In this document: one piece after another, positions 3,980 through 58,793 of the stretch
How positions within the stretch are numbered: position 1 is the stretch's first letter
Layout: each line of letters begins with the position of its first letter
DNA from: Eledone cirrhosa
Taxonomy: Eukaryota
Length of the DNA: 64,000 nucleotides
NCBI GenBank assembly: GCA_964016885.1
Contig: OZ024758.1
Coordinates: 21,204,001 to 21,268,000 of the forward strand
Reading direction: 5' to 3'
The notes under the pieces: model-generated
What the model was told of the DNA's origin: nothing
What the model saw: only the letters and a program-made list of their open reading frames with translations
Databases searched by the model: none
Position numbers and translations under genes: made by a program

Positions 3980-4206
3980 TTACTTCGAACTTACATATTC
4001 AACACATCCTATCGTTCAACGATTCTGAAATTAAATGCCAAAAATAATGGCTGTATTTTAAAGGGTACGTCAAACCTATTTGTAAAACTGTTATATATTG
4101 TATTTTGTCTGATGAAGGCATACCAAAATTTAATGTGGTATCCCTGAAATATGTATAATGAAATAAATATGGTTTTATAAATATAGTTTCCATTTATTAA
4201 TATCGT
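3980..4206 (+). mobile_element. Penelope-like pLTR fragment, family C
   Basis: Homologous to 47480-47642 and 55836-55995; ends ttaatatcgt followed by (TA)n; carries an HHR. Confidence 0.7.
4101..4165 (+). ncRNA. Type I hammerhead ribozyme, intact core (family C)
   Basis: stem I tattttgt/atgaaata; CTGATGA 4109-4115; stem II aggCatacca/tggtatCcct (9/10 bp); GAAA 4146-4149; stem III ata-tg-tat; AUA cleavage triplet. Confidence 0.85.
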
Positions 4207-4276
4207 ATATATATATATATATATATATATCAAAATAAAGATCCGAAGGCATAGTATAAATTTCCAATCATTTTAA

Positions 4277-4354
4277 TCACGACACATGTTTCAATAAAAG
4301 ATAGATCGATCGTGTAGCCATGTTCGATTATTACTGTTCTCGTTCGTCATGTGA
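4277..4354 (-). ncRNA. Degenerate hammerhead ribozyme
   Basis: Minus strand tcac-ATGACGA-...-GAAA-catgtg-TC-gtga: stem I tcac/gtga and stem III aca/tgt are intact, C3 is mutated to A, stem II is poorly paired. Confidence 0.5.
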
Positions 4355-4457
4355 AAATAAATAGTCTTCAAATTATTGATATGAGGGAGAAAATTAACGG
4401 TGTTACCTCACAGAGTTTACATATATATATATATATATATATATATATATATATATA

Positions 4458-4575
4458 CAGGGTGGCCCAAACGTCGAAATACATAAAAAAAAATTGTTTT
4501 ATAAGAAAAACTGTATTCTAAATAAATATGGAAACTTAAAATGTTCCTATATATTGCAACTTTTGAGCCATCCTA
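4458..4575. mobile_element. Tc1/mariner-type MITE
   Basis: Imperfect TIRs cagggtggccca / tgagccatccta, flanked by TA in a (TA)n tract. Confidence 0.6.
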
Positions 4576-4841
4576 TATATATATATATATGTGTGTGTGT
4601 GTGTATTCGTGTGTATATATGTGGATATGCGTGTAATGATATTTATATACATACATACATCCAATGATGTTGACTTGTTCTTCTTTTTGGTAAATATCAT
4701 CTTGGTTAAGAGAGTGGGACTGGCTTTGTGCAGTGCCTTTGCTCACTATAAAAGCTTCACGGCACAGGCATTGCTTTATATCTGGAGATCTCTCTGCACT
4801 TGTCGTCACATGGTACCATGGGCCCAGCACTATGTGTCAGT

Positions 4842-5005
4842 AATTGTCACAAGTGTAGTGTTTGTACCAGAGTTTTCAAGTCGCTGGCTGGACTAAAAAG
4901 TCACACTCGTTCAGCGCATCGGTAGGGGTTCTCCTACATGGATATAAAGTAGTGGCCGTACTCGAAAACGAGTTGGCAGCCACCATACATACATACATAT
5001 ACATA
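4842..5005 (+). mobile_element. RTE-like LINE 3' end with C-terminal C2H2 finger and (ATAC)n tail
   Basis: NCHKCSVCTRVFKSLAGLKSHTRSAHR* (stop 4923-4925), short 3' UTR, then atac repeats; some RTE ORFs end in such a finger. Confidence 0.6.
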
Positions 5006-5481
5006 TGGATAGATAGATAGATAGATAAAAATACTTAGGTACATGTTCCTCTTGTTTTAATTGTTGTACACTGAAATATCGTTGTTTTAGTCACATACTT
5101 CGTCTAGAAGTTTCTTTATTTTATAGCCACCGGTTATCAATTATCTCACCGACGTCTATAGTATTGTTGTTTTATTGTTGTTGTCACGATAGCTTATCGC
5201 AAAAGGCTTTCATCGCTTATCGTTGTTGTTTGCCTTGTGATGATAGAGCCATTCATTTATCCGGAGTGTAGAGGACTGGCCAAAACGACGACAATTTCAA
5301 TCTTTAAAGAGCTGTCACATTGTTATTATTATTTTCTATAAAACATAGTTTTTATTCCTGTAATCAGCATGCCTCACTACACCTGTGGAGAAATTTACGA
5401 CGGGAAAATCAGACACTGTTCGTCAAACACAAAATACCAACATATCTCTCTCACTCTTTCCCACATCTCACTCCCTCTCTC

Positions 5482-5830
5482 TATGTATATATATATATGT
5501 ATATATATATGTATATATATATATATATATATATGTATATATATATGTATGTATATATATATATCTATATATATATGTATATATATATGTATATATATAT
5601 GTATATATATATGTATATATATATGTATATATATATGTATATATATATGTATATATATATGTATATATATATATGTATATTTATATGTATATTTATATAT
5701 ATATTTATATATATATATATATATATATTTATATATATATATATATATATATATATATATATATAAATATATATATATATATATATATATATATATATAT
5801 ATATATGTGTGTGTGTGTGTATGTATACAT
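5482..5830. repeat. (TA)n/(TATATATATATG)n microsatellite
   Basis: Direct reading. Confidence 0.95.
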
Positions 5831-55639: not shown

Positions 55640-55820
55640 TCCGGCATTTGAGTATTGCCGTGTCAATCGCCAATTCCAGACTGGGACTAGCGGTTGAAAC
55701 GGCAAGGGCTCAGCCGTCATAGTCGTAAACTAATTCAGTTAACCATTTTCTACTACCCCAAGTGTCGAGTACTCTGATGAGTAAGGGTCTAACCTGTTTC
55801 TAACTATATCCATCCGGATA
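55640..55820 (+). mobile_element. Diverged family A-like HHR 3' half plus tail
   Basis: GAAAcggcaagggctcagccgTC ... ctactaccccaagtgtcgagtactc. Confidence 0.6.
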
Positions 55821-55835
55821 TATATGTATATATAT

Positions 55836-55995
55836 GGTTGCATTATTTAAGGGTATGTCAATATTTATTAATAAAACTGCTCTATATTATATTTTATCTG
55901 ATGAAAACACACCATAATTTAACTTGGTGTCCTTGAAATATGTATAATGAAATAAATATGGTTTTATAAACATAGTTTCCAATGGTTAATATCGT
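55836..55995 (+). mobile_element. Family C pLTR with HHR at 55890-55954
   Basis: tattttat-CTGATGA-aaaCacacca...tggtgtCctt-GAAA-tatgta-TA-atgaaata; 8-bp stem I; one extra stem II mismatch. Confidence 0.8.
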
Positions 55996-56129
55996 GTATA
56001 TATATATATATTATTTATTTATATATATATATATATATATATATATATATATATATATATATATATATACATATATAGATATATCTATATAAATATATAG
56101 AGAGAGAGATAGATAGATAGAGATATATA

Positions 56130-56200
56130 TCGCGGGTTCAATCGTCGGAAACACAGTAAATAAGGTACTCAATACATATACATGGCAGAGTATAAATATT
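56130..56200 (-). mobile_element. Family D tail fragment
   Basis: cgggttcaatcg...cacagtaaataaggtactcaatacata...agtataaat, like 52436-52495 and 48817-48883. Confidence 0.65.
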
Positions 56201-57235
56201 TGATACATAATTATTTAATATCTAATTAACATTTAATAGATATTTCTATATTATATATATATATATATACACACACACACACACACACACACACACACAT
56301 ACACACACACACACACACACACACACGATACCTTGCATCAGTTATATATACTGTGGCGCAAAAGTTACGAAACCGGTATGTTTTGTAAATAAAACAACAC
56401 GTTATCGTTGTTTTCATATAGAGGCTTTTTTTGTTTGTGATTACGCTGGTGTGAGACCTTTGAGTTGACCTGTAAATTTATTCAGTATTATGACTGAAAA
56501 TCTTTTAGAAAAGAACTTAGCAGCTTTTTTTCATATAAAAATATATTATTTTTTAGACGTATTTACTCTCCGCTATTTCATATTGTGAAATGTTATGTTT
56601 TCTTTTATATCATACCAATATAATCTTATAGATATATAGATGCTCTTATTCTGTGTAACTACAATTCTGTGGAGCCTCGTATAAGATAGTTTGACATCGC
56701 TATTGCAACGATTCAATTTTCTTTAATAAAACAGCGTCTATATTTGTTTATTCTCCAGACAGCAGACGTTTGAAATATTTATTTGCTATGTTTGTGGTCT
56801 AACTTCAGTTAGATTGATCGAAAATATATCAACAGTGATACTTATTGAACAATTAATGAATGGTGCATTTTTTCATGAATTTCTTACATTTCAAATATTA
56901 TCTTCTGGTATAAACTTGGCTTCAAACAAAATGTACAAGTGATTGTTAATCTTAAAATAAAATTCGTTCTTTTCTCAGTGAAATTTCATAAAACACAACG
57001 TATTCATTCGTTTTATATCAATCGTATTTGAGTTCCTTTACATTCTAATTTAGGGGATATATTAAGAACACACACAGACACGCATTAACACACGCATAAA
57101 TATATATAGAGAATAAGGAAATACAAAATTAGATGTTAAAGTCGTTTATTGATAAGGTCGTTATACATATTTTGAGGACGACATTTCGTTACGCAATACA
57201 GAGTAGAAGCTAGCTCTCTACAGACAGCGTCTTCC

Positions 57236-57382
57236 ATAATTGTTTCTACGTTTGGCACAAGGCCAGCAATTACCCAGTACTTTATTTTATCGCCCCCATA
57301 AGGATTAAAGCCAAACTTAACCTCGACGGCATCTGAACTCAGAATGTCAAGGACCGTAACTGTATCCGTCAAAGCATGGCGG
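57236..57382 (-). mobile_element. SINE S1 (diverged, 5' truncated)
   Basis: taattgtttctac...ggccagcaattacccagtactttattttatcg...tgaactcag. Confidence 0.8.
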
Positions 57383-58730
57383 ACATAATAAAGTTACAAT
57401 CAAGGAGGTAATCCAAAATTGAAGTGACAAAAGGAACGAACAAACAGCGATGTTCGTTAATCGAATGTCCGTTAATCGTTAATCGAATATATATATGGAA
57501 AGAGAGAGAGGGAAGAGAGATGTATAAAATACCATCCTCGGTGTCAAGCTGTTTCGACTTGTGTGCTGAGCAAGCCGAAACCGCGTGGCACCGCAGTTGG
57601 GGTTTACATATTTCTATACCCGTACTACATCTCCTCATGTATTGCGTACTCTCTCTCTCTCTCTCTATATATATATATATATATATAAGAATGTATACGT
57701 ACATACGTATATATGTACAGACGCACAGTAGTATGTATATATATATATACATACATGCACACATATATATGTACCTATGGGTTTATCGAACATGTATTAT
57801 AATGTTCGGTTTGTTTGTAAACAATACAGCCCGAATTACGCCGTACAGTGCTCGGCAACCATCGTCGCCCTTTTGTTCAACACTGACACAGGAACGATGT
57901 AGTAGTTTCAAGCTTATTAGCTATTGTCAGCATTGTATACCTTTCTGTGAGATGATTGAACGTCTGAAAGTATATACTTCCCATATGCATATTAACGGCT
58001 GAGCAGCCTAATTTGCACATCGAGTGAGTTATTCGGCCGGGCATACCGAAAACGATAAATGGAAAATAATGAAACGAAATTTCATTTCACATTCTTAGTA
58101 CGGCTGATACCTTAATATAAGTATGTATACGTACATACATATATGTGTACAGACGCACTGTAGTGATGTGTATATATATATATATATATATATATATATA
58201 TATATATATATATATATATATATATATATATATATATATATGTGTATATATATATATGTATATGTATATATATATATATATATGTATATATATATATATA
58301 TGTATATATATATGTGTATATATATATATATATATATATGTGTATATATATATATATATGTGTATATATATATATATATATATGTGTATATGTGTATATA
58401 TATGTATATGTATATATGTGTATATATGTGTATGTATATATATGTGTATGTATATGTATGTATATGTATATGTATATATGTGTATATATATGTGTATATA
58501 TATGTGTATGTATATGTATATATATGTATATGTATATATATGTGTATGTATATGTATATATATATGTGTATATATATATGTATATATATATGTGTATATA
58601 TATGTGTATGTATATGTGTATATATATGTGTATATATATGTGTATATATATGTATATGTATATATATGTATATATATATGTATATATATATATATATATG
58701 TATATATTATACATATTTCAAATATTTCAA

Positions 58731-58793
58731 ATATTATACATATTTCAGAGGTACTGAGCTAACTTCAACTGTACGTCCTCATCAGATAAAATA
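58731..58793 (-). ncRNA. Type I hammerhead ribozyme (C-related)
   Basis: Minus strand ttttat-CTGATGA-ggaCgtac...gtacCtct-GAAA-tatgta-TA-ata; stem I only 3 bp; a divergent partner CTGATGA lies at about 58976 (+, truncated). Confidence 0.7.

Follow-up and report, generated by a model that had tools for sequence, protein, structure and literature searches.

The 64-kb stretch of the Eledone cirrhosa genome considered here (the window; assembly GCA_964016885.1, contig OZ024758.1, positions 21,204,001 to 21,268,000) contains eight long-stem hammerhead motifs that, by their sequence context, mark the 3′ ends of Hydra-clade Penelope-like elements (PLEs). In seven of them the fourth pair of stem II is a C.C mismatch, and in the eighth it is C.A. 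The conserved feature is not C.C itself; it is an unpaired cytosine at position 10.4, on the 5′ side of that pair, facing anything but G. This makes the motif a derived form of a known ribozyme, kept by selection and limited to one lineage, and neither a new ribozyme class nor a new element type. The open C10.4 is likely a contact point that known relatives lack; we tentatively favour the element's own reverse transcriptase (RT)-endonuclease as its partner.

An open pair in a covarying stem

In the Hertel-style numbering of hammerhead positions, 10.4 denotes the 5′ base of stem II pair 4 and 11.4 its 3′ partner. Family letters are those of this analysis, except F, which was taken from the original prediction. 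The motifs consist, in order, of stem I (4–8 bp), the core CUGANGA, stem II directly after A9, GAA, an 8-nt palindrome of the form AU....AU, position 17, and the 3′ strand of stem I. Position 17 is A, rarely C, which makes the site AUA (rarely AUC), and the motifs can be classified as type I hammerheads with an AUA cleavage triplet, for which self-cleavage is predicted. By its sequence, the stem III palindrome may pair between two copies.

Twenty-six natural subfamily representatives, mostly collected by patterns requiring C at 10.4, were aligned. Families I and P were excluded for poor pairing, and L278 and L279, two rare motifs that have an 8-nt palindrome but close pair 4, and upstream of which no open reading frame (ORF) was found, also stand outside this set; L279 may be a decayed C.C family. 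The core CUGANGA...GAA, the A15.1-U16.1 pair and H17 (not G) are the same in all 26 by construction of the patterns. Of 520 cells, 86% pair, with two-sided changes at 16 of 20 pairs and, within stem II, at seven of the eight pairs counted. The whole-structure covariation score is 0.61, as compared with 0.26 after shuffling, a control that ignores relatedness, and 0.09–0.16 for slid alignments. The stem III palindromes covary as well (99% of cells pair), and it is the register lacking an extra base after A9 that shows the covariation. Pair 4 is open in all 26 subfamilies, and RNAalifold recovers the same stem II including the gap at this pair. At pair 1 (10.1/11.1) there are ten A-U, five G-C, five G.U and six unpaired combinations, so that the canonical G10.1-C11.1 closing pair is not a rule here; U.U at this place is a tolerated variant in published hammerhead descriptions and is also common in Hydra elements. 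Loop II, eight or more pairs out in this lineage, is free in sequence. No base of loop II or stem I is invariant, both varying freely, and the conserved tertiary contact between loop II and a stem I bulge or loop, known from extended hammerheads, was not found in these motifs.

The genome was searched with patterns combining the core CTGATGA with the stem III pattern, the reversed pattern serving as the control. C.C at pair 4 was found in 55,786 intact-core matches vs. none in the control. C facing a base other than C gave 25,758 matches (control 18), of which 3,625 have a purine and 354 form C-G; by subtraction, 22,133 are C.U and 3,271 C.A. G-C was found 440 times, and all bases other than C at 10.4 total 4,614 (control 155); among the first 100 of these listed, about 15 were, by eye, false starts inside loop II, and most of the others were single changes in known families. 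The core-killing change C3G, a yardstick for dead copies, gave 263 matches. A closed pair 4, reached from either side, thus accounts for 0.4–0.8% of copies scattered over all families, a frequency that matches post-insertion decay and is similar to that of the dead-core change C3G. C.U (family F) and C.A (D3, F3, H) are amplified lineages, D3 making up about 55 of the first 100 C.purine matches listed, and no amplified lineage with a closed pair 4 was found in this clade of elements. Copies in which N7 is not U number 32,316 with C at 10.4 (slightly looser pattern, control 2,168) vs. 2,402 without it (control 405). A suspected amplified U.C subfamily was traced to CpG decay: among the first 100 of its 803 copies position 10.4 is T in nine, A in one and G in one, and in two of its inverted insertions 10.4 is discordant between the arms, as expected for change after insertion.

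Along the subfamily tree, 10.4 is C in 26/26 with no change, while the six other paired 5′ columns counted changed 4–8 times each (mean 5.8; Poisson P0 0.003). This tree was partly hand-drawn, eight of the 26 subfamilies being placed by likeness without an ORF of their own group; a FastTree version gave 2–8 changes at the other paired 5′ columns. Position 11.4 changed four times among C, U and A, and never to G. C10.4 is as strictly kept as the core across proteins that are 41–85% identical over full-length overlaps (less over short ones), which argues strongly for selection on the ribozyme fold in vivo.

The original prediction, made from the window alone, had posited selection on RNA structure, and the covariation bears this out. 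Its compensatory change in stem II is seen at seven of eight pairs, pair 1 being weak (A-U, G.U, U.U or G-C). Of its invariant C.C, the 5′ cytosine and its unpaired state are indeed invariant, but the partner may be C, U or A; pair 4 is thus neither usually Watson-Crick nor random within this lineage. Family F, which it described as C.A, is so in the window copy and in a minor subfamily (six of the first 100 C.purine matches listed), but is mostly C.U genome-wide (by eye, about 89 of the first 100 C.not-C matches listed).

Host elements and the origin of the open pair

Hammerhead copies in tandem and inverted arrangement lie on either side of ORFs that reach 808 aa and contain RT motifs, SDKT, RW, CxCX5C, CxxC and CxH. 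The 808-aa frame, in locus L122, lies between two hammerheads and is a single ORF in which the RT precedes a C-terminal GIY-YIG endonuclease; its homologs are 28–41% identical. Pfam searches of three window frames and four pieces of element ORFs gave no usable match, and the domains were therefore assigned from motifs. SDKT, with DKT replacing DKG, is found in L120, L122, L124, L125, L128, L138 and L318–L320; the RWK position reads RWI in family F and RWR in B and K, so that RW is retained and K is not. The CxCX5C linker, CxxC and CxH occur in the ORFs of F, A2 and D3, except that CxH is absent in A2, and by eye no CCHH is present in the element ORFs. Insertion in (TA)n and the tandem and inverted arrangement are as in the Hydra clade, whose features were matched to the description given in section 11 and File S2 of Craig et al. 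2021 (PMC8557442); the clade assignment is by motifs, the protein trees containing no named reference proteins. Coding sequence lies 0.56–1.8 kb upstream of the ribozyme in families A, B, C, D, F and G3, and none was found in the stretches fetched for E, G1, G2, H, J, M, N and O. Each of the eight copies in the window matches loci bearing Hydra-clade PLEs.

Nearly all of about 150 copies listed either stop at (TA)n, about 45–55 nt beyond the cut site, or continue through a longer tail for more than 100 nt. Since copies extend past the cut site, uncut RNA is the template, and priming of (TA)n insertion by the AU-rich palindrome at the cut end was ruled out on the same ground. The tail past the short element end opens with a conserved ACUCC ... 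GAGUG (window about 47645–47670, plus strand; families A, B, C, D, F and G3), which probably forms a hairpin and is a candidate RT initiation or protein site.

Metagenome relatives comprise 78 loci, taken from the best 80 of 406. A hammerhead is held by 58 of them, with 45 distinct; the filter demanded that pairs 2 and 3 be formed and left pair 4 free. Pair 4 in these 45 is C-G in 20, G-C in nine, U-A in seven, A-U in five, U.G in two and part of the loop in two, and is a mismatch in none; stem III is of the AC...GU type in 44. The conserved mismatch, claimed across divergent ribozymes, is hence a property of one lineage, related Hydra-clade hammerheads closing pair 4. Three outgroup Hydra hammerheads (L206, L217, L238) have stems II of 9–10 bp and no mismatch. 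Among the metagenome Hydra hammerheads, L211:2114 (+) alone combines an 8-nt AU....AU palindrome with an AUA site; its pair 4 is U.G and the element protein does not group as sister to the present lineage, which suggests a separate origin.

In an IQ-TREE analysis of 25 of 97 rows, the nine C.H rows lie on one side of a branch with support 93/99, together with P0010, an Argonauta protein grouped within the C.H clade by protein alone. All 13 metagenome rows of the tree were labelled closed, some without a sense-strand hammerhead found (none in L263). Family K, from the same genome, lies outside the C.H branch, and its pair 4 is a closed C-G. This family (L318:249, L318:3507, L319:3507, all plus strand) has many intact 713-aa ORFs, A at core position 4 and an apparent long monomeric stem III; judging from these features it can be considered a recently active element with a core variant.

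The simplest history would be that an ancestral C-G pair lost its 3′ G once, after which 11.4 changed four times and 10.4 not at all. The cytosine could then be a mere leftover of that pair, unchanged so far without selection; C-G is indeed the commonest outgroup combination, and families of single origin offer few independent trials. We consider this improbable, since every other stem II column changed several times, a free unpaired base is expected to change faster than paired ones, and C10.4 is part of a CpG in families B, D, E and F2, where it readily decays after insertion; moreover, its partner changed four times and never to G.

Candidate partners of C10.4

The pattern demands that the base be C and that it be unpaired, whereas weakening of the stem alone would accept U.C. 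The possibility that any mismatch suffices, a slow ribozyme sparing uncut RNA for reverse transcription, would fit with copies stemming from uncut RNA, with the similarly weak pair 1, and with a 3′ base that may be C, U or A. It is given a low probability, because C to U, the commonest change at 10.4, keeps the mismatch and yet was never amplified.

An element protein is the partner to which we tentatively assign the greatest probability, though short of an even chance. One retrotransposon lineage would have opened a stem II pair, presenting a cytosine, and the RT-endonuclease of the element would read the exposed C10.4 as a recognition point gating slow self-cleavage. The further step, that the ribozyme would cut only inside the element's ribonucleoprotein, is possible but doubtful. 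The protein contact is favoured over an RNA-internal one because stem I and loop II offer no invariant base and because cleavage of an anole PLE hammerhead was obtained only with the element protein added, according to the sections of PMC11167929 compared.

A contact within the RNA is rather unlikely; here C10.4 would dock on stem I, at the backbone or in the minor groove, or bind a metal ion, replacing the loop I–loop II contact, as the original prediction had proposed. Pair 4 is about where loop II starts in canonical hammerheads with a 4-bp stem II (as described in the part of PMC3088659 compared), loop II is here pushed eight or more pairs out and varies freely, and a backbone or metal contact requires no invariant partner base. 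Against it, the stem I columns 1.1–1.8 change 2–7 times each, stem I is bulged in family C and unbulged in others, and the outgroups with 9–10-bp stems II lack the mismatch, which indicates that a long stem II needs no mismatch to replace the loop–loop contact. As a putative invariant partner, the distal stem I UAUU/AAUA pairs were ruled out by families G, H, J, M and O.

Constraint acting on another layer, through a promoter element of the DNA, the antisense strand, a signal for splicing or a short frame upstream that overlaps the ribozyme, is very unlikely. The pseudo-LTRs (long terminal repeats) of PLEs carry promoters and sometimes introns, as stated in parts of PMC8557442 and PMC4209133, and the ribozyme core contains an ATG. 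However, the bases flanking C10.4 on both sides differ between families, about 30,000 copies with an N7 other than U have no ATG, and avoidance of G at a pairing position 20–40 nt away would be left unexplained. An upstream reading frame from the core ATG was ruled out, as N7 varies.

Several points weigh against the protein contact. In the sister family K, at 39–45% protein identity, intact ORFs go together with a closed C-G pair, which shows that Hydra proteins do not generally depend on the open C. The protein-assisted cleavage concerns the Poseidon clade, and that hammerhead was dispensable for insertion in vitro (in the same part of PMC11167929). The subfamilies are related to one another, and most were fetched by C-requiring patterns, for which the searches for non-C bases provide a control only through counts and the first 100 rows. 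PLE hammerheads cleave poorly on their own, and one was dispensable for insertion in vitro. If the protein reading is true, the C10.4 site would be a natural handle on the role of these ribozymes. Mutants of the two-base site (10.4/11.4) can tell contact with RNA apart from contact with a protein.

Window copies, neighbouring repeats and known systems

All quoted stem II strings of the original prediction are present as placed (4116+, 47551+, 46372−, 58778−, 15962+ and, for family F, 47976−). Most of them belong to separate copies, except that 46372− and 47551+ lie in the two arms of one inverted insertion, with cores at 46379− and 47544+, and count as a single event. Beyond the quoted strings the window has two further C.C copies, 55898+, with a broken pair 3, and 9967−, which is decayed. 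The truncated inverted partner of the F3 copy, near 48064+, has a normal core C.

Table 1. Predicted hammerheads and the inverted insertion in the window (positions in the 64-kb stretch)
Feature	Family	Position	Strand	Core start	Pair 4	Predicted cut after	Other features
Type I hammerhead	A1	4101..4165	+	4109	C4119.C4142	A4157	Stem I 5′ 4101–4108; core 4109–4115; stem II 4116–4145; GAA; 8-nt palindrome 4149–4156; stem I 3′ 4158–4165; 96% to ORF-bearing L123; 3′ end of truncated Hydra-clade PLE (about 4038–4210), then (TA)n
Hammerhead, decayed	B	9910..9975	−	9967	C9957.C9933 retained		Outer stem II broken
Hammerhead	C	15943..16012	+	15955	C15965.C15989	A16004	Stem II 15962–15992; U.U pair 1; perfect 8-nt palindrome 15996–16003; stem I with 4-nt 5′ bulge; 98% to L130; family tied to PLE ORF via L025
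Inverted pair of 5′-truncated PLE 3′ ends		46275..47648	.				Arms 46275–46588 and 47335–47648; 314 nt, 98% complementary
Hammerhead	A3	46323..46387	−	46379	C46369.C46346	A46331	Left arm of inverted insertion
Hammerhead	A3	47536..47600	+	47544	C47554.C47577	A47592	Right arm of inverted insertion; longer tail follows, to about 47730
Hammerhead	F3	47922..47991	−	47983	C47973.A47945		Core position 3 is G (47983), replacing C3
Hammerhead	A3	55890..55954	+	55898	C55908.C55931		Point change breaks pair 3
Hammerhead	D1	58727..58793	−	58785	C58775.C58750	A58735	G.U pair 1; downstream stem I rearranged

A search of the window with Rfam at the gathering score gave no hits, and the roughly 110,000 motif copies can be regarded as a class missed by this database. 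Single-sequence folding of seven window copies gave z values from −0.6 to −2.3, which is weak evidence, and minimum-energy predictions for dimers did not yield the active dimer in any of the eight copies.

Other repeats accompany these elements in a genome that is microsatellite-rich and 3.0 Gb in size. A separate family at 15521+, 25564+, 26706+ and 46097+ has the classical minimal hammerhead, with an extra A, a 4-bp G-C-closed stem II and a short palindrome, and does not match the Hydra loci. At 26517+ there is a decayed hammerhead with an older AC...GU-type stem III, related small families of which gave 1,100 matches genome-wide vs. 414 in the control. In another repeat (L286:3804–3813, L295:574–582, L297:7657–7665), hammerhead-like cores overlap in pairs placed head to head, with a 3-bp stem II closed by U.U. 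A 166-aa frame at 29688–30188 (minus strand) resembles the C-terminal part of a PLE reverse transcriptase, without a relevant Pfam hit, and is, we presume, possibly Naiad-like. A 44-nt pyrimidine-rich tandem array of about 22 copies with 93% matches occupies 20867–21835.

In the literature searched as text, without figures, the mismatch is not named; the alignments of Lunse et al. 2017 and Arkhipova et al. 2017 lay outside the comparison, as did the supplements of Li et al. 2026 (bioRxiv), in the text of which the word "mismatch" does not occur. The nearest known relatives are the Hydra-clade hammerheads in the material of PMC8557442 cited above, which are likewise type I, on the sense strand, near the element 3′ end, and without an extra nucleotide after A9; a weak pair 1 (U.U, G.U, G-C), a palindromic stem III of 8–10 nt and (TA)n targets are also common to both. 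In its Hydra rows, however, pair 4 is, by eye, paired in 25 of 26 and in the loop in one, in contrast to the open C10.4 described here, and stem III is AC...GU with a GUH site instead of the 8-nt AU....AU palindrome with AUA (rarely AUC). The present elements further differ in a stem II of mostly eight pairs or more and a 3′ untranslated region of 0.56–1.7 kb.

With the minimal hammerheads, as presented in the parts of Cervera and De la Pena 2014 (PMC4209133) compared, the motifs share a location in PLE flanking repeats, a long helix II, families of thousands of variable copies, both single and inverted, and possibly the predicted low-activity dimers. In those hammerheads an additional base separates positions 9 and 10.1, the G10.1-C11.1 pair is conserved and helix III is short or missing, whereas the motifs described here covary in the register without the extra base and have an 8-nt palindrome as stem III, and so do not belong to that class. 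By eye, a pair-4 mismatch is present in two of the 56 rows of Fig. S3 of that paper (C.A in S. purpuratus 1 and U.U in C. sinensis 2), sporadic and unremarked in the parts compared. The anole Poseidon element PAc (Frangieh et al. 2024, PMC11167929) is similar in having a PLE hammerhead, an uncut RNA template and two element ends past the ribozyme, a short end and a tail; it belongs to another clade, its ORF begins in stem II, and the part of the paper compared mentions no conserved mismatch. Unlike the extended hammerheads of the Schistosoma type, the motifs have neither a 4-bp stem II with a conserved loop II nor a conserved stem I bulge, but they share with this canonical extended type I the full core, comprising C3-A9, G12-A14, A15.1-U16.1 and H17.

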